A stretch of 64,000 nt of DNA from Psammoneis japonica (taxonomy: Eukaryota): NCBI GenBank assembly GCA_008632985.1, contig QPGO01000014.1:124001-188000 (forward strand). Reading direction: 5' to 3'. How positions within the stretch are numbered: the stretch's first letter is position 1; each line of letters starts with the position of its first letter. Position numbers and translations under genes: made by a program. The notes under the pieces are model-generated. The model saw only the letters and a program-made list of their open reading frames with translations, was not told the DNA's origin and searched no databases. Shown piece by piece: positions 20,026 through 64,000 of this stretch.

Positions 20026-20759
20026 GTGAGATCTACGAATAAGTCCAACGTCGCTCACTTTGCTACAGAGTGTTGTCAGGTGCAGCGGAAGAACAAAGGC
20101 TGAAATAAGCGGTCCCATTTTGTGGTCGGTGGTCCGTGATGGTCATGCGCCATGCGTTGATTTTTGATTTTCCATCCAACGTCTGTCCGACATAGGTACA
20201 TACGGTAGGGCCATACCAAGGCCATACCGTACGGTACTGTGTACCGTACGTAGGGCTACTTCATAACGCGAACCGAGTTCTATCTGCGCAAGTTCTGCGC
20301 TCCTGCGCTCTCATCGTTCATCGTGCAGCAGAAACACGACAATGGCCATATAACGCCGTTCGTTCTCAAAAACTTAGTGTGGCGGCTAGCATCTGTCTTC
20401 ATAACAAGAGCAAACCCACAATTGTCGGTGCATGATGACGTACTCGCATCCATGTTTGATGATGTTTGCCTTCGCCATATCTATGGTAGGTGGGCAAAAG
20501 GCAAGACTCGACTCAGCACGTATCAATTTAGTTAGGCCGTTCGAGTCGAGCGTATTAATAGCGGGGCATTCACGAACACAACGGAAACGCTGTATCCTGC
20601 ATGCTTTGCTCTGAAGGGAAAATACACAATTTCTGTCGCCTCAAATTCTAACCTAACCTGACGACAATGTGAGTGATACTTGCGGACTGAACTCCATTAT
20701 GCTTTATTTCATGCACTGCATTTTCTCACTTTTGATCGGTCTCTCTTTACTACTGTAGC

Positions 20760-41300: not shown

Positions 41301-41650
41301 CAGAGCTGGGTACAAGTTGTGGCAACAGCTCCATTTCAGGGCAGGTGTTGTGCAGCAAAAAAGCTGGTCGCACGACTGCCCTCCTCAGATTTTTGCTGGG
41401 GGTGGCAGAGGAGAGGGTTGGCGAGGAGGTGCAGAACAAATCAACGCAACCTGGTCTGTGCCCCATTGTTGGATGTTTTTCATTTTGCACTAGCCCTGAT
41501 CAAGTGCAGAAACCAGTGCTGCAATGAGCACATCCACAACTTGTGCACGATGCAACAGTGCATGGTGGATGAGAGCACGCGGCCATGGCCAATGGGCTGA
41601 GTGCGCGCTGCTGCACGCAAAGACAGAGACCAAATGTGTTGCATTCAATG
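35360..41650. mobile_element. Degenerate repeat island made of two diverged ~3 kb related units, TpA- and CpG-depleted
   Basis: Matching blocks 35360-35580 vs 38180-38410, 36120-36170 vs 38440-38485 and 37350-37395 vs 38712-38762. Family not identifiable. Confidence 0.65.
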
Positions 41651-41940
41651 AGTGCACTGTTTCCATTATTTTTAAGTTTAGTGGTGGGGTTGTAGTCTAA
41701 GAACAGCAACCGAAACTTTCGATTTGTTCTCCACTCTTTTGCACCGCGACACTGCTGCTGTTGCTTGAGGGGAATTTCATTTATAGTTTTTGGGCGTTGT
41801 GCTTTCTGTGGACTAATACAAAATTTATTCTTTATATACATTAATGAAGCAATGGGGCCTTGCTCAATTCTCAACGGTCCGCGAAAGAAATTTGAAATCG
41901 GGCCTCACAAAATCGAGGGATTGCGGTACACGGTACCACC

Positions 41941-42290
41941 GGTACTTCAATGCAGAGCCCTTGCGTTGAGACACTCCAAAGGCTATCTTTTGAGACGAAA
42001 AAAAAACAGAAGATTCACAAAGATTCTAAATGTTTTGAAACGTTCGGCGTAACAAGGTTGAGGGAGATCAGCGGTGTTCGGCATTCGGCACAGGTACTTC
42101 AATGCTGAACCCTGACGTTGAGATACTCCGAAGGCTCTCTTTCGAGAGAAAAGATTCACAAAGATTCTAAAATGTTTAGTCCTGTCAGTGAGGATCATGT
42201 GGAACTTTTGCTCGGCAAGACTTGAGCATTGTTACCCTTCACATCAGGAGACTTTGTTTCACTATGTAGCTGAGATTCGACTGAGATTCC
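41941..42290. promoter_or_regulatory. Duplicated promoter block with clustered GAATCT (PSR-type) motifs upstream of the phosphatase
   Basis: A ~90 bp direct repeat at 41941 and 42093. Minus-strand YGAATCTH matches at 42010, 42151 and 42272, plus three near-matches. Confidence 0.6.
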
Positions 42291-42424
42291 AGAAATTTTC
42301 ATTGTGGTTGAAAAATTGACAATGAGTTGGATCTTGTTGCTGCCGATGAAGGTTTCAACAAGACTCGTTCTTGGTTTCAAACCTTGATTAATCTTCTCAT
42401 TATTCTGCAAAAAGCGATTTTATC

Positions 42425-44878: not shown

Positions 44879-45399
44879 CTCCCTTGATAAAGGTTTCGTC
44901 GATGCCTGGTCGTGGGAGGTGGATTTGCGACCTGTTTGGCTCGACACGTGGGGAAAAAAAAACAGTTAGAAGTTAGTTACTTCACGCCACTATCTTCTTC
45001 GATCCAGTTCGCACTTTCTTTTGCTGCTCCGCTCGGAGAATGATTACTGCCAGTCTCGCTTTCGCGCCTACAACCCGTCACACGAAGCTCTTTCTCGGTC
45101 TCTTTTCACATTACTTTTTGCCTTGTTTACAACGATTGGAATGAATAGACGTGTCATACAATGCGGCGAACATGGCGTGAAGCTCACCTCAAAAAGTTAA
45201 ATGGATATGCTGGCTTGTCGAAAGCCACTTTTCCCGATAATCACATTGACAAGAGTTGCTTTTCCTTGCGCGGTGCATTGAGCCGCGTCATTTGTTACCT
45301 TTTGTGTGACAAGATGTCCTTGTCATCCCAAAGCTTGAGCAGCTTTCTGACAGTCAACAGTCCAAGTGTTCCAAGCTACACACTGCTGCATAGGCTGGC

Positions 45400-48300
45400 C
45401 ATGTTTGCCCAGGTCAGTCTGTCACTGATGTGGCATGGACCACTTTGAAACCTGTTCCAAGGGGGTTGCACCTGTGATTCCCATGGTGTGAACCCTCCTC
45501 CCACAGTGCATTGGTTGCTGCATCTGTGTTGATCATGCCTCTGGTTTCATTCGTGTTGAGCATCATCAAGTTACTTTCTTTGCTGTTGAGATGATGTGAG
45601 ACAAGAAGCATTCAAGAAGATGGCAAGTGGTCACAGTGTAATCTCATGTGGGAGCAACATGACAGTGGGTGCTCAAGGCCAACCAGTTTGAATCAAATGT
45701 GCCAGAAATGCTCAGCAGCTCATCCACCATTGCAGGGTCAACTGCCACAATCAGAGTTGTTTCTCTGAGTGCTCCATTCAGTGCAAATCTGAGCTGTGGT
45801 CCTTCACAAATCTGTTCACACCAGACTTCATCCTGCCAACATCTTTGCCAGATTTGTCATCCCATGTTGTTGTTTTTGCATGACTGCCATGCTTGGGGTG
45901 CCCTGTTCCCACATCTTGGAGCCCCAAGCTGCAGCAAAATCACAAGCCCCCTCTTTCATCAACAGCCATGGCCAAGATGCAGAGCATTTTGGGGCTTCAC
46001 CTCAGTCTGTTTCAGCAAGGTCCCACTGGCTCTGAATGAAAATGTCAGCTTTGTGCTGCACCTGATGATCTGTTCTCAATGTGAGCACATCAACCACAGG
46101 GGGATGCCCCACCTGTTTTGCACTGGGAAGACCTCTGTTTAGAGAGCTTCACCCAAGCACCATCAGACTTGTCCAATGGCTCCTTGTTCCTTCAAGATGA
46201 TTGGCTTGCTCCTGCAATTTTGAGCAGGAATTGCAGCATGAAGAGCGAGAGCACAACACCAGAAACTTGCCTCAGCAGCATGATGTGCCCAAGTCCTCCA
46301 GAGTTCCAGCACTGGCAGGAGCAGCAGAACCAAGGCCATTGGCCCCACCTCAGGAGCTGCCATTGCAGCCACCTCAAACACCCAGTCCACCAACAAGTCA
46401 GCAGCTGGCCCACCACTGTCTCTGCAACACATCTGCCCCACCTCCACAGGGCAGAGAAAACTGTCAAGACATTCCAGTCACATGCCTGACTGCTCCAGTC
46501 TCCACCGGTCAAACCCACAATGTGGGCTCACAAAGAAAGGGTGGGGGTGCATGCACATCAACTTATTTTGATGGCAAAGCTTGTCTGTCCTGAGCTGGGC
46601 CATCCAAAGTTGGAGCACAAAATGACCAAAACTTGCCTGCCTTGCTGAAATCCAGACCTGCCATGATGGCAGCATTTTGGACATTCAAAGCCCCAGGGTC
46701 TGTGCCACCAAGACAAAGAAAGATGGTGATGATGTGCCAAATGTGCAAGGAGTTTTCACAAGTGAGTTTGCAGAGCAGCATGCCGGGGCAATGAAGGCTG
46801 ATGTTGCCACATGTGTCCACTGTAAAACACAAAAAATGTCAAGCACGAGGTGTCCATGACTGCCGCGCTGAAGTCCACGATGGCTTTCAAGTTGAAGCAC
46901 CCACCTGGCAGGACTCTGCTGAAACTCAAGGCATGATTTTGTTGTCCAGGCAGGCTCAGCAGTTGCCAGCTGTTTGTCTGTTGTTGTGTGTTTTGCTGCA
47001 AGAAGGTTGTTGGACAACACATCAGGTTGACTGTGCAGGTGTGTGCTGCCCCCCCCCCCCCCTCCCACACACACACACTCACACACACAAGTGTTTTGGC
47101 CGGCCCCAGGAGCTCCAGCTGCAATGTTGTGCTGACAGGGGAGGCAGCTTTGCTTGCAAGAGCTGCAACCAAGGGCTTTTTTCATGTGGCCAAAGAACCA
47201 CACTGTTGCTGAGCATGGCGCTGGCAACACAAGCTCAAGAAGCTGACATTGTGCCCAGCACTCATCCAGTTCATCAGAGGTGGGGTGTTTGCAGTTTTTG
47301 TGTTGGTCCATTGGGTTTTGGCTCCTTGGGTGCAGGTTGACTCTCATTTGCTGCAACAAACCTGCATTTTTCTCACACAACCCCGCCTGACTCCTGCAGT
47401 CCCCACATGATTTGTGCAGAGTGGGGAAATTTAATTGGTGCCTCCTTGATTTAATTTGTCTGATTTTGCAAGAAACAGATGCATTCTTCCAAATTCTCCC
47501 AGTGGTCATCCTTCCCACGTGTTCTCTACACAGACATGCTGTGCAAATCACAAGCTCTTTTTTTGGTGATGCTGTTTCTTTTTTTTGCACAAATTGCCAC
47601 CTCTTTTTTTGTGCTGTTTTCCAACCACAACAAAAATTTTAACCTGCACCTCCAGTTGTGCCAATGTCCCATTCAGCCTGCAAAGTTTGTTCACTTCAAA
47701 ATTTTTGTTTTGTTCAGCTGGATCTGTGCAACAAAATTTCGCTCACAATTTCTTGCTTTTTGGCTCAGTTGCAGTTTCATTTTGCAACCGGAACAACACA
47801 TCTCCACACAGCTGCTGTGTCATGGGTCACTGTTCATCCCCTCCTGGCAATTTTAAGGTGTGCAGGGGATGCCGCCACTCTCATCCATCAAAACAGCTGT
47901 GGCAGAAAGCAGCAAAGAGGGTGCAGAAGGGAAGTTGCCATGTTGAGAACCATCTTCATCTTTTCACAGTTCTTCAGTGCTGCTTCAAGGGGTTGGTGCT
48001 GGAGACATCCAGTGTGCTGCCAGGGTCAATCTCATGCCCCCCATGCTTGCAAGGGGTGCAGCCGGTTGTTCTGTGCTTTTTGCTGGCTTTTCTGACATTG
48101 CTGCCAGGGTTCATCCCATTGCCCCCCTTTTCTGTGGGTGGTGCAGTGATGTCAGTGAACGTGCCCTTCAATGACTTTGTCAGGGTGCACCCCACACTCC
48201 CTCCTCACTTTGGGGACACAGCTGCTGGATCCTGCTTTTTAGGCTTGAAAGCCAGAGAGTGTGCAGCCAGGGTTCATCCCATGACTCCCACCTTTTTGGG

Positions 48301-50400
48301 GGGTGCAGCCATTGTGGGATCCCCCATTGTTTTTGTGTGGATGATTGTCATGATGCATTGTCCCATGGTTTTGGAGATGGTGTTGACATCAGTGGCATTT
48401 TTCTACAGACCACTTCACAGGCTTTGCCGTGGTTCATCCCACATCTGTCATGATGCATTGTTCCATGGTTTTGGAGATGGTGTTGACATCAGCAGCCTTT
48501 TTTTCTGCAGACCACTTTGCAGGCTTTGCCATGGTTCATCCCACATCTGTCATGATGCATTGTTCCATGGTTTCGGAGACAGTGTTGACATCAGCAGCCT
48601 TTTTTTCTGCAGACCACTTCACAGGCTTTGTCATGGTTCATCCCATGTCCCCCCTTCTTCTTGGAGATTGATCCACTCTGTTCACTGCATCTTTCCCCTG
48701 CAATCCCGCTGCATCTTTGCCTCCCACTTGCTTCAGCCTCTGAAGGAGCATTGTCTGTGCCCCAGATCCCTCACATGTCTGTCACTGTCCAAGCAGCACC
48801 TCCTCAAGCACCCACTCTCTCCTTCTCTCATTCCGGTGATTCATTGATTGGTTTGTCTGCAATGGATCCTGTCTTGAACAGCCCAGTTGTGTGCAGCCCC
48901 AAATTTCCCAATTGTGCCACCTGATCTCTTGTTGTGATTCCTCCAAAGCCACCAACCATCCCCTGGTCAGTGCCCACCCATGGAGAGAACTCAAGAACAT
49001 GGGGGTGGTGCATGAAGACCCCAAAAAATTGTGCTGGAAGAACATTTCCTCACTTTGCAAGCTGGGGTGCTGGGCTGGCCACAAGTGCTGCGTGCACATT
49101 GCTTGCATTCAATTCATGCTGCCTGATCTTGGCTGGGGTCAGGCATCCATTTGTGTTGATGGGAAGCACTGTCATCACATGATGGCACATTTGGACATTT
49201 GCAGGGCTGCTGTTGACTTTTGTCACAAAGCCAACATCTTGTTTGACATGTGTCTTCCAAACAAGAATCGCTGCAATGACAGCAGTGCCACAATTTGAAT
49301 CCCTGCCACCTCAGGGGTTTTTGCCTCAGTCACTTGGTGGGTTTGGCCATTGTGAAAATCAATGCCAAGCTTTGACATGAGAACAGGACCCCCCCCTGTG
49401 CTGCACTCAGCACTGCTTGTTTGTCCTCCTGACCTGTGAGGAATGACACAATGAGTGTTTCCACATGTGCGATGTCATTCTGCACAGCCAAGAATCTGAC
49501 AATGCAGGCTGCTCTCATGGAGCCAGGATGGGAGAGTGCTACACTGTGATTTTGGAAATGGCACCCATTGTCCCAAACTTCAAGAACTTGGGTGCAAACC
49601 ATCCAATGGGATTCCTGGCAACAACTGGGTGCTTGCCTTTCTGCTTCATGCATCTCACAGATGTCACAAAGAACAGAAAGGCAATGAAAGCTTGGACACT
49701 TCCCATGCTTCAAGAAAATCCATTGAATGCAGAGACAATTGGTGAAACAGTGGAGAACACAATGAAAAACATTTGTGCTGCCTTTGCTGACCAATCAGGA
49801 GAAATTGTCAGTTGCCGTGGTGATGAAAACTGAGTCTGCAAGGGCTGTCACACAGTGTGCACTGGGGACTCAGATGATCACTTCTTTGACATGGCTCATC
49901 TTGGTCAAAACCTGTTTGTTGCTAAAGAAGCCTTTGTTGAAGTCATTTCTGCCAACAAGAAAAACATTGGACAAGTTGTCAGGGTGAAAGGTGGCCTTCA
50001 TCAGACTGTGCCATTTGGTGGAGAACACATTTCCATTGTTGATTTCAAAAAGGCCTGTTCCTGCCTCTGGATGACAGAGAGATGGTCACGTTGGAAAATT
50101 CAACAATGAAATCTGTGAAAAACTTGATGATCCCAGGAGGAATGGTGCACCAGTTTGTCTGCATGCAGTGCCGGCTGTTGGCAGTCCAAACAGGTGGCTG
50201 CAGTGTTGCTTTTTGTTGGACAGAAAACAAACTTCTCTGCTCTCATTGGTTGGACCACCATTCTGTTTTTTAACAACCACTCAAGTGCACCCTTTGTTCC
50301 CTGCTTGCACTGCTGAGCTGGGATCTGCTCTGCTGGCACATGCACATCTGTGAACAGCTCCATCTAATCCATGTGTTTGTGCACGTCATGCACTCAGCAC
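45400..50400. mobile_element. Highly degenerate repeat-derived sequence, TpA- and CpG-depleted
   Basis: Same composition as the other islands, with broken protein-like frames. Family not identified. Confidence 0.55.
48346..48645. repeat. Tandem repeat of ~101 bp, 3 copies
   Basis: TGTCATGATGCATTGTTCCATGGTTTTGGAGATGGTGTTGACATCAG... starting at 48346, 48446 and 48548. Confidence 0.9.
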
Positions 50401-52439
50401 CTGGTCTCATGACATTGCTTGTCTCTCAACAGTGCTGTCATCTTGTGTGGTTTCCAAATGTGCACTCCAGGCTTGACACCTTCATGTGATGTTGGCAGAT
50501 CCTGCTCAAACAATTCACAATCTGGGTTGCCCATTTGTCACTTCTCTAAGATCTGTGACCTCATGAGCTGGTGGAAATTGTGGATGTGGTGCATCTCTCA
50601 TGCAGAGTTGTGCAGGGAAGTTGCAGCCACACTTGAATCTGACATGTGGAGTCAATGCCAGCAGCACTGCAGGACTGACCACAATTGGAATGAAAGATGC
50701 ACAGTGACCATGGTCAGAGACCATGACACTCCAGCAACTGGAGGGTGTCCCTGCAAATGGGGACCAAAGAAATCAAAGACCAACTCTCAAATGATTGGGC
50801 CCCCATGAACAATTGGGTGCTGATGCAAACACCCGAGGGAACGGAAGAATCAAAACAAGTTGATGGTGACATGGAGCCAATGGCATCCACCCCTCCTAAA
50901 CTCAAACCACCTTGGAAGAAGATGCAGCAACCGAGGTGTCATCAACACCAGCAATGCCCAAAAATCTCCTGGAAAATTGCCCCAACCTCAAGCCAGGCTG
51001 CCCCACATTCATCACAGCCAATCCCACTGCCCTGGACATGGTGGCGGCAGAGGCAATGCATTGATGATGTCACACACTGCAACAAGCACTTGTGCCACTG
51101 GTGCCAGTGAATCACAGAGAGCCCACTGCAGTGCACACCTGGTCCCTGGCAACCCGGGGCACAACCCATGCTCTCCTCTGGCACCCTTGACCACCAACAA
51201 TGCAGAGATGAGGACAACATGGAGGAGGACTCCAATCTGGTCCATGACATCTCAGACCAGAACAATTGCCTCCAAGAGAAGGAGGGTGGGAAGTCCCGAA
51301 ATGACTCTGACACTGCTCCAGTCACAGGAACCCCAAAGGACCAACAAGTTGTGAGCAACACAGGAAGCAGGCCTTCAACAGTGACCCAACCCAGAAGACT
51401 TGTGCAATGACTCATGCCAGCAGTGCAGGTTGCATCTAGAACCCACAAATGTGGGTGCATGCTCATCATCAAGCTCAGTGCAAAGAAAGAAAGAGCCAAT
51501 GCTGGGAAATGCCACATGAGATCCTGATGGAGATGTTCTCCATGCTTCAAGAAGCAGACACGTCTTGCATGTTGCATCCACCATGGAGGGAAGGTTTGAA
51601 CAAAAAATCTCTGTCCAAACCAGAGGGGTCACCCAAAAACAATGCCCAGATGTGGGGCCACATGCACAAGCACTGCATCATGGAAAAAGAGGTGGAGGCC
51701 TTCTGTGATGTCTTCGTTGGGAGCAACAAATCTCACAATGCCATTGTGGAGAGGATGCAAACTGTTTCTTCCAGGACAATGACATTGGATTGTGCCCCAA
51801 CTCCCCAACTCAGCTCCACTCCCCCTCAGGAACTCTCTGGGCTGGGTGGCTGCTCCACTGCTTTGAGGATCATGACCACGAGGCCCTCAAGGTGGCATTC
51901 CAGAAGGCCACAGGACAGGAAGTTTGCTTTAGATGGAGGAACATCAACACGAGGGACCCAGGGCAGAGGAGGGACATGACAACCAATGAAGTGCATGTCT
52001 TCAAGGCTGAAGCTTGCTCTGAGAAAGAGCATCAGGCAACAAAAGCTGTGCAGCAAATTCAAAGGGCAAAGTTGCTAAAATTGTCCCCAACCACAGGAAC
52101 ATCTTCAATGACAGGTCCAAGCAAGAACAGAGGTCAAACATCTTTGCTCAGTGGCAGAAGCTCAGGCAGAAAAGCAAGAACAGGCAACCTCAATCAACAA
52201 GACGTGTGGCTCAACCTCACAACCATGGCAATGAAAAAACCAGAGTGCCTGCTTCTGGCTCTGACAATCTTGGAAAACCAGGCAAAGTGCACAATGGCCC
52301 CAGCACTCAAAAGAGGCCTCCCCAGTGCTGGCATGTGCAGGAACATGACCAGGGATGCAGTCTGCAGACCACTCACATGCCAAGGGCTTGGCACAAACCA
52401 CCTCTTCATCACCAAAGCAATCTCTCAAATTGGAATGAT

Positions 52440-52717
52440 TGACAGAAATTGAAGGCAAATGGCAAGAATTCAAACAACAACTCCTCACTGCTGTCTAAAT
52501 GGCAGATGAGTCTCTGCTCAGAGACCATTGCAGGAGCCGAAAGATGTGCAAGTCAGTGCAATCGGGCTGCTGTCATTGTTCTTGTGAGCCGTGTGGCTCG
52601 AAAGCAAACTGCATCGCGCGTGCACGCGCGGAGCTAAAGAGCACACAAAACTGTGCGCGGCAAACTAAACAGCGCGCAACATGTCGCGCGCACCCAAATC
52701 CTGTTCAAATCCTGTCA
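52440..52717 (-). repeat. 3' LTR (278 bp)
   Basis: Direct repeat of 60979-61233 and adjacent to the polypurine tract. Confidence 0.93.
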
Positions 52718-52719
52718 CT

Positions 52720-55700
52720 CCCCAGTTTGCTTGAGGAGTCACAGAAACAGATTCGACTTTGGATGGAATGAAGTTCCAGAACATGAGGGGGCGGAGAAGG
52801 TCCCAGACTTGGGAGCAACCCCAATGCTTGCTGAGAATGTCAGCAGGGTTGCGGGAGCCTTCGATGAAGTGGAGCTCAAGGTGACCAGAGGCAATTGCCT
52901 CGCACACGGTGGAATGATGGTGCGGTGTGTCGCTTGTGTAACTTGGAGTGCGGGATGGTGGCACTGTCTACAACCGACTTGTTGTCACCGAACATGCAAC
53001 TGATGTCACGGATCGGGACGCCGAGGCAGCGCAGGGTGATGCGCAGGTCGACAATCTGCTCGACACAAGTCCTTGCGGCAACAAATTCAGACCCGCAGGT
53101 CACAGTCTCCATGGTGGCTTGCTTCTTAGAGAACCAATCAGCCGGGAATTTGTTGAGGAAGTGGAGCATTCCCATGACAGAGCGTCCGGTGAGCATGCAA
53201 TGATGCAAGTTTGCATCGACGCAGTGGGTGGCAGTGACAAACTTGCCAAGGGGCGGTGGAGCGTCCTTCGGGATCATCTCTTCTGCTTCGCCGTACACGG
53301 AATGCATCCATTCATGGGCCGGAGCAGGGAGATCCAAACAGTCGGGCTCTTCCGTGCGGACGCGGAGAGCGCCGTGTTGCATCTTGGAGAGGCAACCACA
53401 GATGCGTTTGGCACGATCCAAGTGGCCTTGATGGGGTGCAGCTCGGAAGCTAGAGAGTGACATGACGGCCGTGGCAATGTCAATTCGACCAAGGGACACT
53501 GCCCATTGGAGGGAACCAACAAGAGACTGGAACTGTTGAATGCCATCGGGCCCCAGCAGTTCGGAAGTGTCCATTTCGGGGTGGTCACCCTTCTCCAGAG
53601 GGGACAGGGCGTTGGTGGCAGGTTTCTCCCCAAACAGTCGTGTGCAGCTGTCGACCATGCATTCGATGTACTTGCGCGGAGACAGGCACAAGGTGCCATC
53701 AGGATCCCGGGAAAAGTCGCAGCCTGGATGGAACTCAATTGGTCCCGCACCCTTGAGCTTGAACTTGCACTTTTCTGTGAGAGTGTCGACGAAAGATTGA
53801 GGGTCCTTCATGGCAATGGCGAGGTCATCCACACAAACGGCAACACATTTGCAGTGGTCGCCGTTCCTGTGCATCCAAATGTCGGGTTCGGCGCGGCAGG
53901 GGAAGAAACCTTCAGCTCGCAGGCAGTCGGCAAAGCGCTCGTGCCAGCGGAGGCCGGAGCTGCGCAGTCCATGCAGGGCCTTGTGGATGACAAGAATGTG
54001 GCCTTCGAGTTTGCCAAATTCGGGTCCAGCTGCAATGTGCAGCTTCTCCTTGGTGGTGGCTTCAAGGTGGGCATTGCCAATGTCGGTGGCCCATGTCTCC
54101 AACTCGCTGAGTTCGGCCAGGAAAATCATCAGCCGAAGGCAACAAAGGGAGACTGCTCCGGAGCAGACACTGTCAACAGGTACGTCCGTGAGGTGTCCAT
54201 CGGCTGTGAGCCGTGCCTTGTGGCGGCCGTCGTGTTTCACGTCGCACACTGGGTGCACTCGGATCTTCTTGTGTCCCGCAGGAGGAGTGGAAGACTCGGA
54301 GGGCCCGCAGTCATGAAAGACTTCGTATTCATCGAGTTGGTCCATCTCGAGATTAGTTGTGTCTCCCCATTTGCGGTTGCCGTTGCGTTCGTCTAGTGAC
54401 ATGGCGTGTTTGTAGTTCCGGGGAACTTTGCATCCGCACTTGCAGCGAGGTGCAGTGTGGAAGGAGCAAAGCTTGGCTTGGTTGGCCATGCGGAGTGGCT
54501 TCTTCTGGCGCCTCGCGATGGTGCGGAACCGCTTCCAGCCATCAGTGTTGAGAAGTCCGTTCTCTTGTGCATGGATGGTGCAGGTGACAGGGTTGTCCTT
54601 GGTGATGATGGCAAGAGGCTCGGACGTGATCTCCCCACTTTCCCATTCAAGCACAATGTTGTAGCTTGAGCCTTTCCAGGTTGGGTCATGAGGCTTCAGA
54701 GGTCCTTCGTGTGACACAATGCATCGAAATTTCCAAACAGTGGTGTCTTCGTCTTCTTGCTCAATGTGATTCATGATGTCGTTGCAGGCCAGGACTTCCT
54801 CGCATTTGTCGTTGTTGACAGAGCAGACACACTCAGTGAGCTCGGGGTTGCCGTTCACTTTCCAGTCATGATCTTCAACGGCCTTGACGATGCGAGCTCT
54901 GTGGCATTGTCCGTCCTCTTGTGGCTGCATGAGGAAGGCGCATCCGATGATGTCTTGCGGATCAAAAACTGGCATCTTGGGTGTCCTGATCTCCCCATCA
55001 GGTGAATTGACGGGGTTGTCATCATGGCGAGATTTGATGATGGGTTCAGGTGGCTCCCCATCAGGAGGATCAAGACGCAGGTTTTGAACGGAAGGATCGG
55101 CAGCAGCAGAACGTACATTTGACCAGTGGAGGATCTTCTGAGTGTCATCAGAAAGAATCTTAAAGGTCATCTGGTGGCCGACGTGCTCAGCAATTCCAAC
55201 AAAGTGTCCACGCAACTCACGGGATTCGGACGGCCAATCAGAGTCATCGAGGTGGAAGCACACAGGTTCCCACCAGTGAAAGCGAAGCAATGGGCTGATG
55301 TCCGGGGTGGAGCCAGTGAGAGTCTTGAGGGGCGTGCGCCAGTGGAGACGTGGGGATGCTGTGTGGTTGAGTGTGAAGCACACGCACATGAGTGCCAGCA
55401 GCCATGTGTGGGCAGGCGAACCGAAACGGTCCATGACGGTGTTCGCCATGCGCTTCATGGTCTGGTGTTGACGTTCGGCAAAGTTTTGGTGTTGCTGGTG
55501 AGGCTCGCTTTGCCAGCTGGAGACAAAGAGGGCTCATGGAATCCCAAGCACCTTGTTGCTGATCTCAACTTGAGCACGGATCCTCGAGTGTGTTGACAAA
55601 CTCCATGTCCGTTTTGGTGCCGTAGACGTCAGTGATGGCAGACTCGGTGCCAACAAACAGTTGGGCGCTGGTGCAACCAGAGTCAACGGCCAGGGTGTCG

Positions 55701-58301
55701 GCACAAACGGTGTCAGTGGCGATGGGCTCGTTGTGGCGGTGCACATTAAGGGTGGGGTTGGGCGATTTGCAGGCCTTCTTAAGGTGCGCACCGGCGGGCA
55801 TGCGGGCGCATTGCGTGGTGCAGTCGAAAGTGCGACGAACCGTGTCGGCAGGTTGGAAACCAAAGCAGGGCCGAAGAGACTCGTGGGGGGGGGTCCGTGG
55901 GCTGCACATTGCACTCCAGAGGCGGAACGTCACCATCCTTGGGGTCAATCGTGTGCAGATGACACTCGTAGAAGACGTCTTCATTCAGAATGAGGTGGTC
56001 ATCGAGGGCGGACGCGTGATCAGCAGACAAGGAGGCGGACATGACAGCCTTGTTGACAACGACACGGTGACGGCAGTTGCCGCACTTGTCAAACAGGTTG
56101 GCAGTGGGATCGTCCTGCAGGTCCGAGATCGCATCGCACCACTGGTCGTCGTCAGTGACAGAGTGATCGAGGACGGAAGGGTCCCATGTGTCATTGCCGG
56201 TGAGGATGACATGTGGCAGGGTGTCCCATTCGTCGTCAGTGCAGGGCCGCATGGCAACACAAGGCAAGCCACCCTTGATGTCAATTGGGATGACACAGCC
56301 ATCAGGTGTGGCGATGCGCTGCAAGCCATTGGGCACCTTGACAGAGCGATCGTTGACATCGTGTTTGCACCATTCGAGCTGGCCACAGGAGTGAATGGTC
56401 TTGCCCTTTCCTGTGCATGCGTGCTGATGGAGGATGGCGACAACGGGACCACGCTGTGTCTCAATGATGGCACCAGCGGTGACAATGGGGATGTCCACCA
56501 ATTGATGGTCATCAATGCCCTGAACGTCGACTTGGCGAGAGGTGCGCGCAATGACGCGAACGTTGTCGCCAGCAATGCTGCCGTTGGCTCCACGATCGAC
56601 TGGAGCACCAGTGCGTGTGGAGTGATGAGCGGAGGCAGAACAAACGACATTGTGGTTGTTGACGCAGCGGCAAGTGCGGCCATTGAGTTCCATGTTGTCT
56701 GGAGGAGTGGGCGAGGCAGAGGGAGCGGCGGATGGGCCCGGTCGACCAGCTTTGGGGGCTTGGTTAGGGGACAACAGGTGTTGCAGATCACCGGGTGGCA
56801 GTGGCCTGCGCTTGGTGAGATGCGCCAGAATGGGATTGTCTGAAGTGGCATCCCCAGGCGGGGCGGGATCACCAGAGTCAGCAAGAGTCGTGGCGGACAA
56901 GTTGACATCACCGTCACTCCCAAGTCGTTGGTCGTGAAGGTTGACCACAATGGACTCGTGCCAGTTGCTGGCTCGTGGGTTGCGAGGAGGCGGACGAGAA
57001 TGCTCAAGGATGATCGCCTTGGAGGAATGGGGCAATGAATCCCAAATCCGTTGGTGGTCGGGAGGGAGACGTTTCCATTGGTCGCCGGTGAGGCTGGGAC
57101 CGTGGGTGCAGGCAGCGTGAGCCTGAAGGACGTCAATGTTGCTGTCGATGTCATGGAACACATCATCGGATGGTTCCTCGGAGCAGACGTCATGTGCGCA
57201 TGTGGCGCGGCGGGGAGCTCGAGGTGTTGTCTTGGGTTGAAACGTGCTGTCACATTGAGCCGCCGCGGAGAGGAGCAAGCCACAATGTTGATCGCATGTG
57301 AGGCTCTTGCCACTCTGCGTGCGATGTTGATCAGCTTGGTTCTTGACGGCGCGGAGTTCCTCGACAGGATGTGCGGCATTCTCGAGCATGACGCGCTTCT
57401 GTCCTTCAGAGAAGTGGTCACTGGCCGGGATGAGTGCCTCGCACTTGTGCAACTGATCCTGCCAATGAAGGATGAACCCATGGGTCAGACCTTTCCAAGT
57501 GCCATCACCAAGGCGTGTGGTGGTGAGGTGCGTGAGCAAGGTGGAGGACTCGACAGAGGCGTGGGTGGAGGCGAGCGCACACTCGGACAAGGAGCGGCAG
57601 ACGGTCTGGGCATCAGAAGACCCCACATTTTTGCGAATGAGAGCTTTGCCCTTGTCGGTGAGAAGGATGCATTCGAAGACGGCGAACATGCACTTTTGTT
57701 GTTCAGCAAAGAGCAGTTTGTCTTCGGGGGTGGTTGGTTTGTACGACGAGTCTAAAATGCACTCGACGTCTTGGGCACGGGCTTGTGCCACAAGTGAGGT
57801 GTGCCAAGTGTGCCACTGCTTGTCGGATTTGAGAGCCGTGAAGGCAGTGGGGTCACGCTTGATGCCTCGCTTGAAATCTCGCACTGGGTCGCGTGCCTTG
57901 GTCGGGTTGGTGACATGCGGAGGTGCAAGAGGTGAGCTGCCGACGGACACAGAAGACATGCAGTCGGGGCTGAGGCAGCAGGCAAGGAACTCATCGTGCG
58001 TGAACAACGAGGAGTCATTGGCAACATCAAGGCCTTTGTGTGCTTTGACAATGTGCAGACCAACTTGAGCTGCTGACATGTTCTTATGACCTCGGGGCAA
58101 TGGGATCACATTGGTGCTGTCATCGCACTCAAGCGAGTCGATTTGGGAAGGTGTGAACGTGAACAGTTCTTGGCATGAGTCCGTGCCGTCATGGGTCAAA
58201 GCCAAATGAAGAGGGCTTCCAGCACCTCGGGCAAGCACAGTTCCAACAACGTGCTTGAAACCATCGGTTTGTTGCTGACGAGTGAGAACCATGGCAGACA
58301 A
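52720..58301 (-). pseudogene. Copia gag-pol pseudogene
   Basis: Gag FKRGIKRD, protease VDRGANG, integrase ATDT/SEPHQQHQNFAER, RT DVKHDGRHKARL/DIGNA/CVDD and RNase H VDAN/SEFVA/GDN/NPADILSK. Disrupted by frameshifts (~55890, ~52895), a short deletion (~55580) and a TGA stop (~55535). Confidence 0.93.
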
Positions 58302-59075
58302 AGACGGTGTCAGGACAAGCGATTCTTGTCAGGATGCGGAGGCAGACTTGAAACTTGAGTGGAAATGGACTTGACTTGAAATGGACTTGACTTGAAATCT
58401 TGAACCATCTTAAAATCAGAAGTTGCCGGGTTGTGTCATCCCGCTCGTTGTCAAGTGCTAAACTTCCCATCCGGTCTGCAGAGTTGTGCTGGCACGTCCA
58501 AACCCGCAGCCAGCAGCACTTTGGGTTGCTTGCGAGCGGAGCAGCGGGTTGTGAACCCCTGCAGGTGGGCTGACTGGAGGTGGACAAGACCCCCGAACCG
58601 TTCTCATTTTACATCGGTCAGATTTCCCGATCAGGCTGGCCAGTTGACGCAGGCGTTGGGCGCTGTGGACAAACAAACAAACGCGGGAAAACACCCTCGC
58701 CCCAACGCAGGGGCTGCAATCACGGCCACTTGCTCTCACAGTCGTCCTCGTGGACCCAGTGGAACTGTGGAGCACCAGCAGTCCGGGGCAGATCAGGTGC
58801 AATGGACTCGGCGTGCTTGTAGAGTGGCAGCAAAGCCGCAGTCCAAAGAGTGGGTTCAAGTTCTTGGCCGTGAAGACATGTGTGTGCATGTGTCTTCAGC
58901 GATGATGATCCTTGAACATGCAGGGTTCTTGACCGTTAACCATTGAATGGGTGCATCAAGGGATGAGGATCAAGGACAGACTTGGACACAACCGTTGAAT
59001 GTGTGTCTTCAGCGATGAGAAGTGGCACAATCAATCCAGACATCCAGCGGTGAGGAGACTTGATGGTGACGTTAA

Positions 59076-60819
59076 CGGGGACCCCCCGCAAGTCTGTACG
59101 ACCATCCGATGGAGCATTTTTTGCGAGTGAAACGCAACCCTTCTCGTGTTGTCACCGCGATAATTTCCTTTTCAGTCTGTTGCATGCCAACCTTGTTGTA
59201 GCTGTCCTGCTGGCGATCCTTTTCAACAAATCGTTTGTTCTGCTCCTGTTGCTGAGGTTTGGTCAAAACGATCGCCAGCAGAAAGTGCGTTTTGACAACA
59301 ACAATTGTGTTTCTGAATGTCGACGTTGCCAAGCGCAGTGATGCTCCAAACTCCTCCAAGCCCACCCAAATGGAAGAAAAAGCTGACGAAAAGAAGCATG
59401 CAATCCCGGTGCACAATGTGTGGTGCTGGCATGGAAGAAACCCGGGGTTTCAGTGCCAGGAGTGAGTCACAAAATGTTGATGTTCTTTGTCATGTTGTTT
59501 CAATGTCTCGCATCTCACAAACATTTGTTTGGTCATTGCAACTGTCCAGCTGTCATTCCTTTCCTGTGAATCATTTGTTCTGCTCCCATTGATGAGTCTT
59601 GATCAAAAGGATTGACAGCAGAAGGTGTCATTTTATGACAACAATTGTGTGTCTCTGTGTCGTCATTGCCAAGCAGCGATGCAACAATCGCCTCCACCAA
59701 TGCCACCCAAATGGAGGTAAAGCCAATGAAAAGAAATGGAGGAAGAAGCGCAAGCAGGAGATTGCAATGCCCCCAAGCTGTCTCTTTGTCACTGAAGAAG
59801 CTTTGAATGTGAAAATGACCACAAATGGTGTCTTTTTGCGGATTGGTGGTGTCAATCAAATGTGCGCACATTGTCAGAGGTGCCAGAGACCAAAAAAGAA
59901 TGCCAAACTTTCTCCTGAGGGATGTTTGCAATGCCTGACAAATGAAGATCTCCTGCCCAATGCATGTCATCCTCCAAGCTGTCTAAACCTTTCTGGTCTC
60001 ACTTGCCACCTGGCCAGCAAACTGTCATTGAACAAATCGTTCTTCCAAATCAAAGGCCACGTGGCGAGATTTGCAGGGAATGGAACTAAGGGAACTTTGA
60101 AACTGAATCCGTTCTCACACTGTAGTTCTCTAGCATGCCTTGCTTCGTCTATTTTCGTCTCCCATCGCGCAATGCTGGAAGCTGTGAAAGCCCAACAAAG
60201 ATCTCCTGCCTCATGCATGTCATCGCTTGTCCAAAGGACACGACACTTTTTCTCCTTTTGAGCAAATGACACCTGGTGGCTTTTCCAAATCATCACTGTC
60301 ATGCATTTTTGAGTCTCTTGTTTTACCAGTTTTTGCTGCTTCATTCAAAAATCGGTCGCTGGGGCCCCAAATGATGCGCACCAACAGCGAGCAGGTCACG
60401 ACAACTCTCTCGTTGTTGTTGCTTGATTTTCGACCGACTGTCTTTCCTCCTCCTCATTGGAAACAGAATGAGTCTCACCGCTTTATTTTGTTGCTGTTTG
60501 CTTGCATCGGTTGAGTGACAGCAGTGCTTGCCGCGGCAGTCGTCTTTGCGCAGAACAACTGAATTTGAGGTGCCTTTGAGGGCGGACGAGACATCGGACT
60601 TGTGGAGTCCTGGAAAGCCACCACGTTGTAATGCCTTCAGCATAAGGTCACCATCCATCCATGTGCACCGCAACGTAGCCGGAAAGGCGGTGACAAGAAG
60701 CCTTGCGGCCTCTGTAATCTTCATCGTTGATTTGCTGTTTTTGTGATGGAAAAAATGCAGCGCATTTGTCATGGAGCGGAAGCAGCGCGGACAACGTACA
60801 GACTTGCGGGGGGTCCCCG
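59076..60819. mobile_element. Non-autonomous DNA transposon with 25-bp perfect TIRs, TTAA-flanked, nested in the Copia leader
   Basis: TTAA|CGGGGACCCCCCGCAAGTCTGTACG ... CGTACAGACTTGCGGGGGGTCCCCG|TTAA. Internal ~170 bp duplication (59230 vs 59570). Confidence 0.88.
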
Positions 60820-60978
60820 TTAAATTCCTGCCGATGCCTGGCATTGAATTCGCGCAGACTTGCCGATGTGCGTAGAACATGTGCGGAGGTCCATGCAGAA
60901 TTGAGGTGGCGTCGTTGGTAAATCAACGACGACGATGGCGGTTGCTCAATGGGTTGACAATGAGCAAGACTGTCAATC

Positions 60979-61233
60979 TGACAGAAATTGAAGGCAAATG
61001 GCAAGAATTCAAACAACAACTCCTTGCTGCTGTCTAAATGGCAGATGAGTCTCCACTCAGAGACCGTTGCAGGAGCCGAAAGACGTGTGAGTCGGTGTGA
61101 TTGGGCTGCTGTCATCATTCTTGTGAGCCGTGTGGCTCGAAAGCAAACTGCATCGCGCGCGCACGCGCGGAACTAAAGAGCACACAAAACTATGTGCGGC
61201 AAACTAAACAGCGCGCGACATCAAATCCTGTCA
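60979..61233 (-). repeat. 5' LTR (255 bp)
   Basis: Direct repeat of 52440-52717 that lacks 23 bp. Confidence 0.93.
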
Positions 61234-64000
61234 ATGATCATGAAACACTCCCAGCTTGGCACTGTCACTGGTGACTTGTTGGTCAAGGCCAACCTTCAAC
61301 AGCATCAGTTAGAACTCAGGCTGCCAGGCCAATTTTTTGACAACAACTTCAACGAGTTTCGCCATCTTGCCACTTGCTTCTGGACCAAGGATGCACGGAA
61401 ATTTCCATCTCTAAACAACACCAGGATAGAAGCAGATCTGTGGACACTTTCCCTGCACTGGGAAAATGACAAGTTCCTCATCAAAGAGTTCCACAGAGCA
61501 GGTTTCCAGGGAAAGAAACTGGCCCGAATCAGTCTCTGCAAGCTGCACCTGTGTGTCAACACTGTTTCTGACATGGTCATGGACAATGGAAGGAGGGTCC
61601 TTCAAAATCATTGGAATGGGCAACTGGGCCTGCCAAGGCACAACCCCCATCATGACAATTGGACTGGCTGGAACAGGGCAACCCCTCACAGAATGATTGG
61701 AGAAAGTGGAGAGAGGTCTTAGAAACAGTCATTGGACCACAGAAATCTGTCATCAATGACCTGTTGCAACAGCAGATGGACAACCTGTTGCACAAATGGC
61801 CACATTTCCTGTTCGTTGTAGAGCAGTGGGTTTGCAAGCACACCCAAGTGGGAAACTGGAGATGCTCTGCTTCTGTTCTAGGTCACCCAACAAGAACAAT
61901 GAGTTCTTTGTGTTGCCACTGTGCTGGAGAGACCAACAAACTGCCAGACAACCTGTTGAGAACAAGAATTCATGGGAACGACACAGCAATGATGTCAACT
62001 GGTGTTGTGCAGAAATTTGGTTGCACAGAGCCGTGTGCCCCAATGAATCTCTAGGAAGCAATTGACAGGCTCCACGCAGACATCAACTGGCTGGCAGAAG
62101 ACTTCAAAAATGATGATGATGGCACTGAGGTTGCTTGCACAACCTCCAAAGGAACTGCCACAGTGACATCTGATGAGTCTCATTTGAGTGGCAAAGGTGC
62201 ATCTGCTTGGACCACACAGGGAACCCAGGATGACCACAAAACTGAAGGCATGAATGCAGCAAGAGGCAACCCTTCCAATGTGAATGTGTGCCAAGCAGAA
62301 ATTGTCAGACAACTGTGATGACATGCATCATTTGCGATTTTCATGATGTCACCCAGGGACAGGTTTCTCTTGGATGTGACAGCAACCAGGCCTTGAAGAG
62401 CTCCAACAACCCTGGGTTGCAAACTCACCAAAAATCAAAAGCAGCGCAATGTGTTGTCAGCACTGCACTCCTGGATTCAAAAATCACAGGTGTGATGGAC
62501 CACTGTCAACATGAAAGGGTGCATGGACAAAATGACATTGCCTGCAAGGACCCAGACCATCCCTCCAGGCTAAATGCAGACATGGACTCAAGGGCCAAAG
62601 AATGAATGGCTGACATGCTGAACAATCCCACCTGCACAGCAAGTGCAGGTGGAAATGTGGTCACTTTGGATCAGAAACAGGAAAGTCATGTCCAATGCTG
62701 CAGATTCAATGCAACATGCAACCAGATGGCAGGAAAATGCTGCAGTGCTGAGCAGAAAAAGGGAGATTTTCCTCACTGAGCATCAGAGACGTCAGTTGGG
62801 ACTTCCAGGTAAAAGCGACATCCAATCTGACACCATCCAGACAACAATGGGCAGCAAAGCATGTGTCTGGATCATGCAGGGTCAACAAGATGCTGTGCAC
62901 ATGGGGCAAATCTCTGGCGCAGTCCTGCCCACAATGCCTTTTCCCCCAGTGGATGACTCAAACCACATGCTGGAATGTCAGGTGGAGAGTGCGGTGGAGA
63001 CATTGCACAACTGCTCAGCGACACTTCAAGAGTGGTTGTGCAAAGCAGAGATCAATCTAGAAATCACCAAAATCATGCTGCAGAGACTTCAGGAATGGAA
63101 AGAGGGTGTTCCAATGCAACAAATTCACTCACAAAATGATCTCATCTGGCAGGTGGTTGACTCTCAGGATTGGACAGGATGGGGCAGATTTGTTGAAGGG
63201 GGTGCATGTCTTTGGATTGGAAGTTTGCTCAGAATGCATGCCACAAATGGGCAAACTCCAGGAGACAAGGCCAAAGGCAGGTCAGATTTCTCATTGTCAA
63301 GGCTTGCAACGCATCATGGGACCAATGGGAACACCACAACAGCACAGTCCACCCGGCCAACATGATGCCAACAGAGGCACAAGCCAAAGCCATTCAGGGT
63401 TGGGTTTGAGGTGAGTTTGCATCAGGTCCTCAACAAGAACTTCCACCAATTGACATGAGGACATTCAAAGGAACTCTGGATGAGTTTTTGAGCAGCACTC
63501 TGGAATGCCTCCAAGCCTGGCTGAACAATGTGAGTGCAGCTCACAACTCTTTCTGATGACTGCAAGCAGAGCAACAACACCAGGCACATGAGCTCATGCT
63601 AGATTGGCTGCAGAGTGCCAACAACAACGTTCAACATTTACAATGAAGGGTGGGGCCTTCTTGTTGTCATTGTTCACATTTCATGTGGTTGATCCAAACC
63701 AGTTGGGTGACCTCTTCTGGAAACTTGGGTGATGTAAAAGCCATTTGGCAGTGCAACAAGCAGTGATCTTTGAGTCATTTGTTTGTTTGGGTTGCCCATT
63801 TGTTCTTGGGTTTTGACACCCTGTCTTGGCTTCTCTTCCTTGAGGGTGGGGCTGTCTTTGAACACCACAAACACCTTTTTTTGTCAAAGACACCACAACT
63901 GGATCAAACATGGGATCCCCAACCAATGTGTGTGCCTTTGCGTGTCATTCCAAAATGGTTGACTCAAACTGGTTGGTGTCTCTCTTTAGAAGATGGCTGC

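Follow-up and report, generated by a model that had tools for sequence, protein, structure and literature searches.

Loss of TA dinucleotides by transitions at 5'-TAY-3' in repeated DNA of the diatom Psammoneis japonica

The window analysed here comprises 64,000 nucleotides of Psammoneis japonica (assembly GCA_008632985.1, contig QPGO01000014.1, positions 124,001 to 188,000) and contains a full-length but dead Ty1/Copia LTR retrotransposon of 8,794 bp (52440–61233, minus strand), identified by its LTR pair, a 5-bp target-site duplication and an RVT_2 domain (E 1e-18). In element sense, the 278-bp 3' LTR (52440–52717, minus strand), with the ends TG...CA, is 92.2% identical to the 255-bp 5' LTR (60979–61233, minus strand) over 243 aligned bp, and direct reading of the sequence places the duplication ATGAT at 52435–52439 and 61234–61238. 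Comparison by tblastn with seven full-length relatives traced a polyprotein remnant with the protease, integrase, RT and RNase H region (52752–56942, minus strand) through four segments in frames -3, -1, -2 and -3, separated by at least three frameshifts near 55915, 55579 and 52903. The element resembles the CoDi-type Ty1/Copia elements of diatoms in its RVT_2 domain, LTRs, 5-bp target duplication and the gene order of full-length relatives, but differs in being dead and stripped of TA; a word search of the paper describing CoDi elements (PMC2806351) found no transitions in the mutational sense, hypermutation, TpA or RIP. The best relatives of the element are marine metagenome sequences, and the best named matches of a flanking housekeeping gene are diatoms. 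The family is very abundant, with a summed contig depth of 4e4–1e5 in the public run X1 compared to 61 for single-copy DNA.

Within the element, the stretch 52720–58301 (5,582 bp) contains 342 CG and 22 TA, in agreement with the initial annotation, which counted roughly two dozen TA in ~6.3 kb. The window's own genes (37.1 TA/kb) predict 207 TA (Poisson p ~1e-60), and the pol of two related elements (~35 TA/kb) predicts ~196 (Poisson p ~1e-56). The observed-to-expected ratio (o/e) in 1-kb windows from 53001 to 58001 is 0.02–0.13 for TA and 0.66–0.87 for CG. Among 40 related pol or element DNA loci, TA o/e is 0.58–0.83 in all six loci of one set and 0.57–0.92 in 33 of the 34 loci of a second, the outlier (0.33) being a 438-bp piece, compared to ~0.1 in the pol of the Copia copy.

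The loss is apparent in the encoded proteins. The 860-aa 'pol' open reading frame (ORF; 52876–55458, minus strand) has 5 Tyr, 40 Cys and 47 His residues and the 840-aa ORF (55779–58301, minus strand) has 2 Tyr, reproducing the earlier Tyr counts, whereas 41 homologues contain a mean of 4.0% Tyr (range 1.7–5.0%). The 27 columns in which Tyr is conserved among these homologues read C at 15, H at 4, F at 2, W at 1 and Y at 5 in the Copia copy, and all five retained Tyr residues are encoded by TAC. At 53824–53835 (minus strand) the catalytic motif of the RT reads CVDD in place of YVDD (TGT GTG GAT GAC). All nine Tyr-less motifs quoted in the initial annotation are present, with CVDD at exactly that position. 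Two of the ancestral motifs proposed for them differ slightly, since F, not Y, predominates among the homologues in VxDVK and as the final residue of KYKYGx. The replacement of Tyr by Cys and His is thus real and consistent with TA to TG and TA to CA changes on both strands. To call the element 'recoded' is too strong, since the copy is dead, with CVDD for YVDD and at least three frameshifts. Nor is there evidence that the 840-aa ORF is an intact gag gene: its match to Copia proteins by tblastn is limited to the part downstream of ~56942, and it is long in large part because TAA and TAG are absent, which opens long ORFs in all six frames.

TA-poor DNA makes up ~26 kb of the window, comprising the LTR element, a nested DNA transposon, older repeats in which CG is also nearly gone and a small tandem array. 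The nested element (59072–60823) is a low-copy, non-autonomous, piggyBac-like transposon with perfect terminal inverted arms of 29 nt, each retaining GTAC and including the TTAA of a piggyBac-like target duplication; one X1 contig skips 59070–60817. Its TA o/e of 0.14 and TG/CA o/e of 1.59/1.42 lie outside all 123 normal 1.75-kb windows, a yardstick from which the element's native TA content may differ. The Copia element is inserted into an older repeat without TA and CG (45300–52439), to which single-copy X1 contigs match exactly and which continues past the element and runs off the window (61234–64000). By composition, a second old domain without TA and CG spans 35500–41650, and 9600–10300 is a small intergenic island in which TA is missing, CG scarce and TG/CA abundant. 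The intergenic array (24437–25467) consists of about four tandem units of ~270–330 bp that are 67–72% alike, again without TA and CG. A search of the old repeats recovered no Pfam family and no protein family; their class being unassignable on this basis, they may all be retroelements.

The domain edges are sharp (~50–150 bp, as at 35500–41650) and lie at element ends. The domain that has kept its CG coincides with the LTR-to-LTR span bounded by the target-site duplication, and composition is normal in the 3.6 kb of unique DNA that separate two repeat blocks. The loss is therefore confined to repeats, as initially proposed, and affects both transposon classes; it is not a property of the Copia element alone, as the DNA transposon and the other repeats share it (~26.5 kb in the window). 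The accompanying claim that flanking genes use TA normally holds for the genes at 1–35 kb and 41.7–45.3 kb, but the immediate flanks at 45.3–52.4 kb and 61.2–64 kb lack TA and CG.

When the ten strand-merged dinucleotide classes were compared with normal DNA, only TA (to 0.09 and 0.17 of the normal value) and CG (to 0.14, in the old repeats) fell, and CA/TG rose (to 1.59 and 1.31); all remaining classes stayed at 0.80–1.27. On the sense strand of pol, the Copia copy differs from two relatives by ~-80 TA, ~+35 TG and ~+52 CA, and both strands are affected about equally. Tetranucleotide survival revealed a narrower target than the TpA first suggested: TA is lost, but as 5'-TAY-3' to TGY on either strand, with YTAR refractory. 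Survival was 0.47 for TTAA, 0.40 for CTAA and 0.20 for CTAG, compared to 0.016 for ATAC and 0 for ATAT, which occurs 80 times in normal regions; TAT is affected harder than TAC. YTAR survival is level at 0.34–0.40 in the old repeats, the Copia element and the nested element, whereas RTAY survival is 0.011, 0.083 and 0.11, respectively. Relative to related elements, YTAR shows a small drop (from 6.1 to 4.3 per kb), and the gain of TG is concentrated in TGY (+26.3 per kb) over TGR (+7.7 per kb).

CpG decay accompanies the TA loss and is separable from it. In the older repeats, 86% of CG has gone to TG/CA, and TCG is worst affected (survival of 0.04 for TCGA versus 0.32 for CCGG), whereas the Copia element has lost 83–90% of TA with CG at ~0.8–0.97 of normal. 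Private CG to TG/CA changes are already present in the Copia copy, and the metagenome relatives L003–L005 show CG loss alone. The initial statement that the pattern is not 5-methylcytosine (5mC) deamination thus stands for TA, given a Copia CG content of ~0.8 of expectation, and needs amending for CpG, which has gone to TpG/CpA in the older repeats and has begun to do so in the Copia element. The signature recurs in public Copia relatives: C or H occupies conserved Tyr columns in 7 of 388 (3 of 240 and 4 of 148), and the Arg (CGN) codons are nearly intact in five of these seven.

Over 243 bp, 14 events separate the two LTRs, without a single transversion: five CA<>TG doubles, seven CG<>TG/CA, one TA<>TG at a TAT site and one other transition. 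Only 3 of 173 and 4 of 200 events were CA<>TG in two gene-paralogue controls, and by our estimate from LTR counts ~0.5–0.7 such doubles would be expected from CG. This comparison suggests that some changes are later than the LTR duplication. Among 40 listed places of the 339 that vary between family copies, a partial sample from contigs that favour majority states, other copies read CG at 16 where the Copia copy has TG/CA, TA at 3 and TG<>CA doubles at 2; some copies still have TA, accounting for 41% of depth at 54032 and for 15% at 54245. Taken at face value, and not firmly, most former TA sites share their changed state among several hundred copies at least 90% alike, a pattern expected from a mutated founder, or from mutation in the course of copying, more than from independent mutation in place. 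The Copia copy itself may have been mutated in place, or its ancestor may have been a founder that already carried the changes and was mobilised in trans afterwards.

We favour, with moderate confidence, a mutator that would act at the DNA level on repeats and convert A:T to G:C at TAY, accompanied by separate CpG decay. Repeated DNA in the diatom nucleus would be subject to dinucleotide-specific transitions acting on the DNA itself, A to G at 5'-TAY-3' on either strand, so that TA becomes TG or CA; YTAR would be largely spared because it contains no TAY on either strand. A second, separable process would convert CG to TG/CA, TCG most of all, resembling methylcytosine deamination and lagging behind TA loss. 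As both processes end at element ends and spare the genes between, the target would be the repeat itself and not its region, with recognition through homology, small RNA or a chromatin mark bound to repeats. We infer an enzymatic origin, with transposon silencing as its role or the mutations as a by-product. Adenine could be deaminated to hypoxanthine by a TadA/ADAT-like enzyme working on DNA, or a TET/JBP-type dioxygenase could oxidise thymine via 5-hydroxymethyluracil (5hmU) to 5fU, which mispairs with G; we lean slightly towards adenine deamination. ADAT/TadA-type enzymes act on A preceded by U, the bacterial TadA context is UAC, and a 3' purine is favoured in ADAR editing and in fungal editing of the ADAT type. 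The context found here points cleanly to no known enzyme, the 5'-T and 3'-Y resembling TadA but TAT being hit harder than TAC. In accordance with the initial annotation, no candidate effector gene was found within the 64-kb window. A literature search returned no description of such TA-directed repeat mutation, and the pattern suggests that repeated DNA is the target of a mutation process not described before.

Other explanations were weighed against the same data. Modified bases in repeats might be miscalled as TG/CA in the consensus; the records give no sequencing platform for either the window's assembly or X1, and X1 may be the source data of that assembly. With that limit on its independence, X1 contigs (word depth ~61) match 41501–52464 except for 2 letters and a single 1-base insertion, and one 6.8-kb contig spans the edge between normal and depleted DNA at ~45.3 kb. 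Contig depth is 55–89 compared to 61 for unique DNA, no letter differs in six of seven depleted-domain pieces, and a split depth would be expected of miscalls that depend on the strand. Open stretches of 840 and 860 codons remain, the changes consist of clean transitions, and the same protein-level signature is seen in the seven relatives from other public assemblies, so that an artefact is highly improbable. We give scarcely more weight to a native composition under selection, in which functional elements would avoid TA, for example to escape a TA/UA-directed nuclease. Avoidance of UpA and CpG is known in viruses and the family is very abundant, but the catalytic YVDD has become CVDD, C or H stands at 19 of 27 conserved Tyr columns, at least three frameshifts are present, and non-coding LTRs, the DNA transposon and unclassified repeats are depleted equally. 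The open frames carry no weight here because TA to TG/CA creates no stop, the only such change being TAA to TGA, from stop to stop.

Error-prone repair, in which processing of T:G mismatches after 5mC deamination in methylated repeats would recruit the low-fidelity Pol eta and yield A to G at WA, would account for TA loss and CpG decay in the same domains, and TA is the strongest Pol eta hotspot. However, this candidate of the initial annotation fits poorly: AA shows no depletion, at 1.00 of normal in old repeats and 0.80 in the Copia element, which is richer in GC; loss needs a 5' T and a 3' pyrimidine; and the Copia element lost TA with CG kept, which means that TA loss need not follow CpG deamination. 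The seven relatives likewise lost Tyr codons, five of them with Arg codons nearly intact, and we regard this route as improbable. Editing coupled to retrotransposition deserves more weight, although we still consider it unlikely. A deaminase acting on adenine in ssDNA or RNA would edit element RNA (UA) and minus-strand cDNA (TA) in each round, and lineages would gather TA to TG/CA changes and insert already depleted. Edges exactly at element ends agree with this, as do the apparently shared former TA sites with TA in some copies, which suggest stepwise accumulation in lineages; LTR divergence is possible if editing follows LTR synthesis. Against it, near-equal strands would need two substrates edited to similar extents, and a family bearing CVDD and frameshifts would depend on helpers acting in trans. 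Moreover, a cut-and-paste DNA transposon without an RNA or cDNA stage is also TA-poor with TG/CA excess, and the local tandem array is depleted too.

The repeat-directed mutator that we prefer can be compared with several known systems. CpG decay by 5mC deamination in methylated transposons resembles the CG to TG/CA change in the older repeats, but it cannot account for the TA loss, a faster change that takes place with CG nearly intact; the chemistry of TA loss cannot be cytosine deamination. TCG-biased hypermutation has been reported in basidiomycete repeats, and TCG is likewise hardest affected in the old repeats here. APOBEC3 editing of cDNA and A-to-I RNA editing by ADAR/ADAT also inactivate mobile elements by clustered transitions; these act on one strand (G to A, or A to G on the transcript) of cDNA or RNA, and the 3'-pyrimidine rule found here is opposite to the preference of ADAR and fungal editing. 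RNA editing as the cause is a poor fit, because the two strands are affected to a similar degree and the loss extends to a DNA transposon. In dinoflagellates, another algal group, 5hmU (TET/JBP) is a thymine modification that is enriched in repeats and silences them; older work cited in PMC11572971 has it replacing T preferentially in TA and TC, and a second study found no sequence preference (PMC11071213). As described in the relevant passages of these sources, it is a modification and not a mutation, with no T to C outcome reported, and 5hmU in this diatom is hypothetical. Repeat-induced point mutation (RIP) of filamentous fungi is similar in its repeat-confined transitions on both strands, its dinucleotide preference, the death of transposons and edges at or near repeat ends, and diatom DNMT4 is described in a passage of PMC9998398 as RID-related and of unknown function. 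RIP converts C:G to T:A (CpA to TpA) and raises TA and AT, whereas here, as the initial annotation recognised, the direction is the opposite: A:T becomes G:C at TAY, and TA vanishes.

We profiled the TA and CG content of the window in 1-kb and 250-bp steps, which told three kinds of DNA apart. Genes (1–35.4 and 41.7–45.3 kb) have observed/expected ratios (o/e) of 0.3–0.9 for TA and ~1 for CG; unclassified old repeats (35.5–41.65, 45.3–52.44 and 61.23–64 kb) have o/e values of 0.0–0.1 for both dinucleotides and of ~1.85 for TG/CA; and a Copia element with a nested insert has lost TA and retained CG. The edges between depleted and normal DNA are sharp to ~50–150 bp. The domain that kept its CG corresponds exactly to the LTR-to-LTR span of the Copia element, which means that a younger element was inserted into an older one and that the losses of TA and CG are separable, with the TA loss being the earlier. 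When ten strand-merged dinucleotide classes were expressed relative to the normal-gene regions of the window, only TA (0.09 in the old repeats and 0.17 in Copia) and CG (0.14 in the old repeats) fell and only CA/TG (1.31–1.59) rose, while the others stayed at 0.80–1.27, including AA at 1.00 in the old repeats and 0.80 in Copia. Every depleted domain consists of repeat or transposon sequence, and the changes fall on both strands. In the attempt to classify the old repeats, no Pfam family was found in 42 ORFs of at least 120 aa, or in the six frames of 45300–52439 read through with X at stops.

Smaller features with a similar composition lie between genes. An island of 0.7 kb at 9600–10300, flanked by an ankyrin/EF-hand gene and the ORF that follows it, is nearly devoid of TA, low in CG and rich in TG/CA, and is probably a transposon fragment or a solo LTR. 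A tandem array at 24437–25467, consisting of ~4 units of ~270–330 bp that are 67–72% alike, lacks TA and CG and resembles nothing elsewhere in the window. Within an old repeat, a 102-bp unit is repeated three times in tandem at 48346–48645 (92% matches), and CA/TG doubles (CA in one copy, TG in the other) make up two of the six differences between the first and second units and two of the four between the second and third. The neighbouring paralogous ORFs of ~333 aa at 17526–18527 and 19144–20142 (minus strand; 65–67% DNA likeness) match no Pfam family, and their TA and CG contents are normal. The flanking genes of the window are diatom-like, the best named matches of the cysteine desulfurase being diatom proteins.

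The Copia element spans 52440–61233 on the minus strand as a complete Ty1/Copia LTR retrotransposon, bounded by LTRs of 278 bp (52440–52717) and 255 bp (60979–61233) that both have TG...CA ends, with a perfect 5-bp target-site duplication (ATGAT) on both sides. Its Copia-type reverse transcriptase matched RVT_2 in Pfam (PF07727; E = 1.1e-18, 68 bits, cut-off 31.6), and 833 protein homologues were detected at E ≤ 0.001 with a best identity of 65%; same-family copies were absent from the protein collection searched, where the best matches were 65–66% identical in both length classes. The tblastn matches of seven Copia polyproteins to the window were confined to 52731–56942. A direct count of 52720–58301 (5,582 bp) gave 22 TA and 342 CG, compared with ~200 TA expected from the genes of the window (37 TA per kb) or from pol in two related elements (~35 per kb) (Poisson p ~1e-56 to 1e-60). 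The 860-aa ORF contains 5 Tyr, 40 Cys and 47 His and the 840-aa ORF 2 Tyr; the mean Tyr content of 41 homologues is 4.0%. At 27 alignment columns with conserved Tyr, the window copy has Cys at 15, His at 4, Phe at 2, Trp at 1 and Tyr at 5, and the five surviving Tyr codons are all TAC. The loss of TA and Tyr from Copia that the initial annotation described was thus borne out, with Cys or His at 19 of the 27 columns, and every motif that it quoted was found, including CVDD at 53824–53835 in place of YVDD.

Full-length relatives align with the window copy in four successive frames, indicating at least three frameshifts. The element has neither the single open polyprotein nor the catalytic YxDD of an autonomous element. 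Because CVDD replaces YVDD and the frame is broken, the window Copia is, judged by its coding sequence, a dead family member. Its long ORFs carry no evidential weight, since a change of TA to TG or CA never makes a stop codon and deletes TAA and TAG; in the stripped repeats (45300–64000), each of the six frames holds ORFs of 150–500 aa. With TAA and TAG nearly gone, false protein predictions by gene callers are likely across this region. Contigs of the public sequencing run X1 that stack on Copia have a summed depth of 4e4–1e5, compared with 61 for the adjoining unique DNA, which points to a family of several hundred copies.

The insert nested inside Copia (59072–60823, 1.75 kb) is bounded by inverted arms of 29 nt that are 100% complementary, with TTAA at both ends, and its empty site is present in one X1 contig. 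No transposase gene was recognised in it, its ORFs of at least 120 aa having no Pfam family, and its copy number is far below that of Copia. An internal direct repeat of 200 bp (59196/59536) is 74–77% alike. These features suggest a cut-and-paste DNA transposon, piggyBac-like by its TTAA, the sole basis for naming the superfamily, and non-autonomous if it is a member. Its TA o/e of 0.14 and TG/CA o/e of 1.59/1.42 lie beyond those of all 123 normal windows of 1.75 kb.

Several observations bear on whether the sequence is authentic. X1 contigs, with a word depth of ~61, differ from 41501–52464 by two letters and one 1-base insertion, and a single 6.8-kb X1 contig runs from normal DNA across the edge at ~45.3 kb into the depleted domain. 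Miscalls of modified bases, considered as the source of TG and CA, would be strand-dependent and would split the depth, whereas the X1 depth in the depleted domain (55–89) equals that outside, in a run that may itself be the source data of the window. A unique stretch of the window was almost absent from two other public runs, X2 and X3, with four short partial matches in X2. In other public assemblies, Cys or His occupies conserved Tyr columns in 3 of 240 relatives and 4 of 148 cluster representatives, and these Tyr-stripped relatives constitute independent support for a real sequence. Conserved Arg residues are almost intact in five of the seven, while P0507 kept 9 of 16 and P0422 12 of 21. 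The TA o/e of related Copia DNA was 0.57–0.92 in 39 of 40 loci and 0.33 in the fortieth, a 438-bp piece; the L007–L040 part of this sample is somewhat biased against stripped copies because one of its two search patterns contained Tyr. CpG decay without TA loss exists in other hosts; the metagenome Copia loci L003–L005, L008 and L017 have lost CG (o/e 0.02–0.26) and have normal TA (0.58–0.67). The 34 contigs of L007–L040 come from metagenome-assembled genomes filed as bacterial or archaeal and encode Copia polyproteins of diatom type, 13 of these contigs sitting in one Sphingobacteriaceae bin, which looks like eukaryotic contamination of these bins.

The fraction of TA that survives varies greatly with the flanking bases, from 0.47 for TTAA, 0.40 for CTAA and 0.20 for CTAG down to 0.016 (ATAC) and 0 (ATAT). 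YTAR survives alike in the old repeats, Copia and the nested insert (0.34–0.40); the corresponding values are 0.056, 0.085 and 0.34 for one-sided TAY sites and 0.011, 0.083 and 0.11 for RTAY. Relative to related Copia DNA, YTAR is hardly lower (from 6.1 to 4.3 per kb), and TG has been gained by 26.3 per kb as TGY and by 7.7 per kb as TGR. The simplest statement of the apparent rule is that A changes to G in 5'-TAY-3' on either strand. Proteins lose Tyr because in-frame TAY encodes tyrosine, and Cys exceeds His because TAY is always present on the sense strand and on the antisense strand only after a purine; the codon numbers behind this comparison are small. The pol sense strand differs from that of two relatives by a loss of ~80 TA and gains of ~35 TG and ~52 CA; these similar gains, with that of CA at least as large as that of TG, indicate that both strands are affected about equally. 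Among CG sites in the old repeats, TCG is the most depleted, with survival of 0.04 for TCGA and 0.32 for CCGG.

Evidence on the timing of the loss points in two directions. The two LTRs of one element are identical at insertion. Here, they differ by 14 events over 243 bp, comprising five CA/TG doubles, seven changes between CG and TG/CA, one between TA and TG at a TAT site, one other transition and no transversions; in two control pairs of gene paralogues, CA/TG doubles account for 3 of 173 and 4 of 200 events. A double implies that the ancestral dinucleotide was TA or CG and that each LTR then changed it on its own. As only 0.5–0.7 doubles would be expected from CG, estimated from the retained and singly changed CG, most of the five should derive from TA, and some TA loss should therefore postdate the LTR duplication. 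A CG origin of all five is unlikely by these counts and becomes possible if CpG rates vary strongly among sites. Between copies, 339 places vary; among the 40 listed, 16 are CG elsewhere and TG or CA in the window copy, TA occurs in other copies at three, and two are TG/CA doubles. The 16 places represent CpG decay private to the window copy, in which it has put His for Arg and Lys for Glu into conserved columns. Independent mutation of several hundred copies should have left variation at almost every former TA site. A deterministic outcome as the cause of the shared states was rejected, since the bias at one-sided sites (~72:28) is too weak and independent copies should even so differ at ~40% of sites. 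At face value, the majority of TA-loss states appear common to the family copies, which may reflect a stripped founder later multiplied in trans; the 40 places listed are a fraction of the 339, and contigs favour majority paths.

The route by which TA was lost can be narrowed by these patterns. A process confined to RNA or cDNA fits poorly, as the strands are equally affected and the nested DNA transposon, which has no RNA stage, is also depleted. DNA polymerase eta, a candidate of the initial annotation because of its WA to WG signature, also fits poorly: AA is at 1.00/0.80 of normal while TA is at 0.09/0.17, a 3'-pyrimidine requirement is seen, and the loss of TA runs ahead of that of CpG. 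The dead catalytic motif, together with the frameshifts and with non-coding parts that are just as depleted, rules out selection for a TA-free element that still works, and GC-biased gene conversion was rejected because TA alone is affected and A/T in other contexts is not. With RNA or cDNA routes and polymerase eta fitting poorly and selection excluded, we lean towards a repeat-guided mutator of A:T pairs acting at the DNA level, accompanied by a separate CpG decay.

Such a mutator would be guided to repeats and would erase TA in transposons of both classes, taking along all tyrosine codons and all TAA and TAG stops. It could be a naturally occurring deaminase of DNA adenine that is specific for 5'-TAY-3', resembling TadA/ADAT-like enzymes, whose natural context is a 5' U/T. 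Alternatively, an enzyme that oxidises thymine in the complementary RTA context could produce 5hmU or 5fU; 5fU pairs with G. That some diatoms possess a genome-defence mutator of A:T pairs that works on double-stranded DNA in the nucleus, as a truly new enzyme system, is a more tentative proposal, which we rate at somewhat less than even odds.

If true, this would be the first known repeat-directed hypermutation system acting on A:T rather than C:G pairs. Removal of TpA through A:T to G:C transitions requires a chemistry other than cytosine deamination and a route of targeting, and the enzyme, if found, could turn out to be a naturally occurring editor of DNA adenine or a thymine oxidase that is mutagenic. 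For annotation, the loss of Tyr codons and of two stop codons out of three means that every frame fills with long false ORFs, and stripped transposons evade homology searches, as exemplified by the 7 kb of old repeat with no Pfam family. The loss of TA also offers a second dinucleotide clock, besides CpG decay, for the order of insertions, and raises the question of how a TA-stripped family attains several hundred copies.

To our knowledge, the described repeat- or retroelement-directed DNA mutators (RIP, APOBEC) all deaminate cytosine, and we know of no described repeat-directed mutator of A:T pairs. Searches of the accessible full-text literature brought up no description of transposons losing TpA, whether in diatoms or in other eukaryotes, nor did word searches of the CoDi description paper (PMC2806351) and a 2025 diatom-transposon preprint (10.1101/2025.10.24.684338). 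A lead for the thymine-oxidation route is the 5hmU system of another alga: passages of one study report that dinoflagellate TET/JBP enzymes make 5hmU, silencing transposons, and cite older work placing 5hmU preferentially in TA and TC (PMC11572971), while part of a second study reports no sequence preference (PMC11071213). For the CG part of the pattern, a further paper reports diatom DNMT4, whose function it gives as unknown, to be a relative of RID, the enzyme of fungal RIP (PMC9998398). CpG decay by 5mC deamination, which turns CG into TG/CA in silenced repeats, describes the CG component only. APOBEC-type mutation is a strand-asymmetric G to A change on the coding strand, whereas here the sense strand carries A to G and T to C changes at roughly similar frequencies. 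RNA editing by ADAR/ADAT, fixed by reverse transcription, differs in that A would change to G solely on the strand that is transcribed and solely in retro-copied sequence. Fungal RIP converts C:G to T:A, mostly CpA to TpA, and leaves an excess of TA; the process seen in the window runs in the opposite direction, so that the two are alike in outcome and reversed in direction and chemistry.
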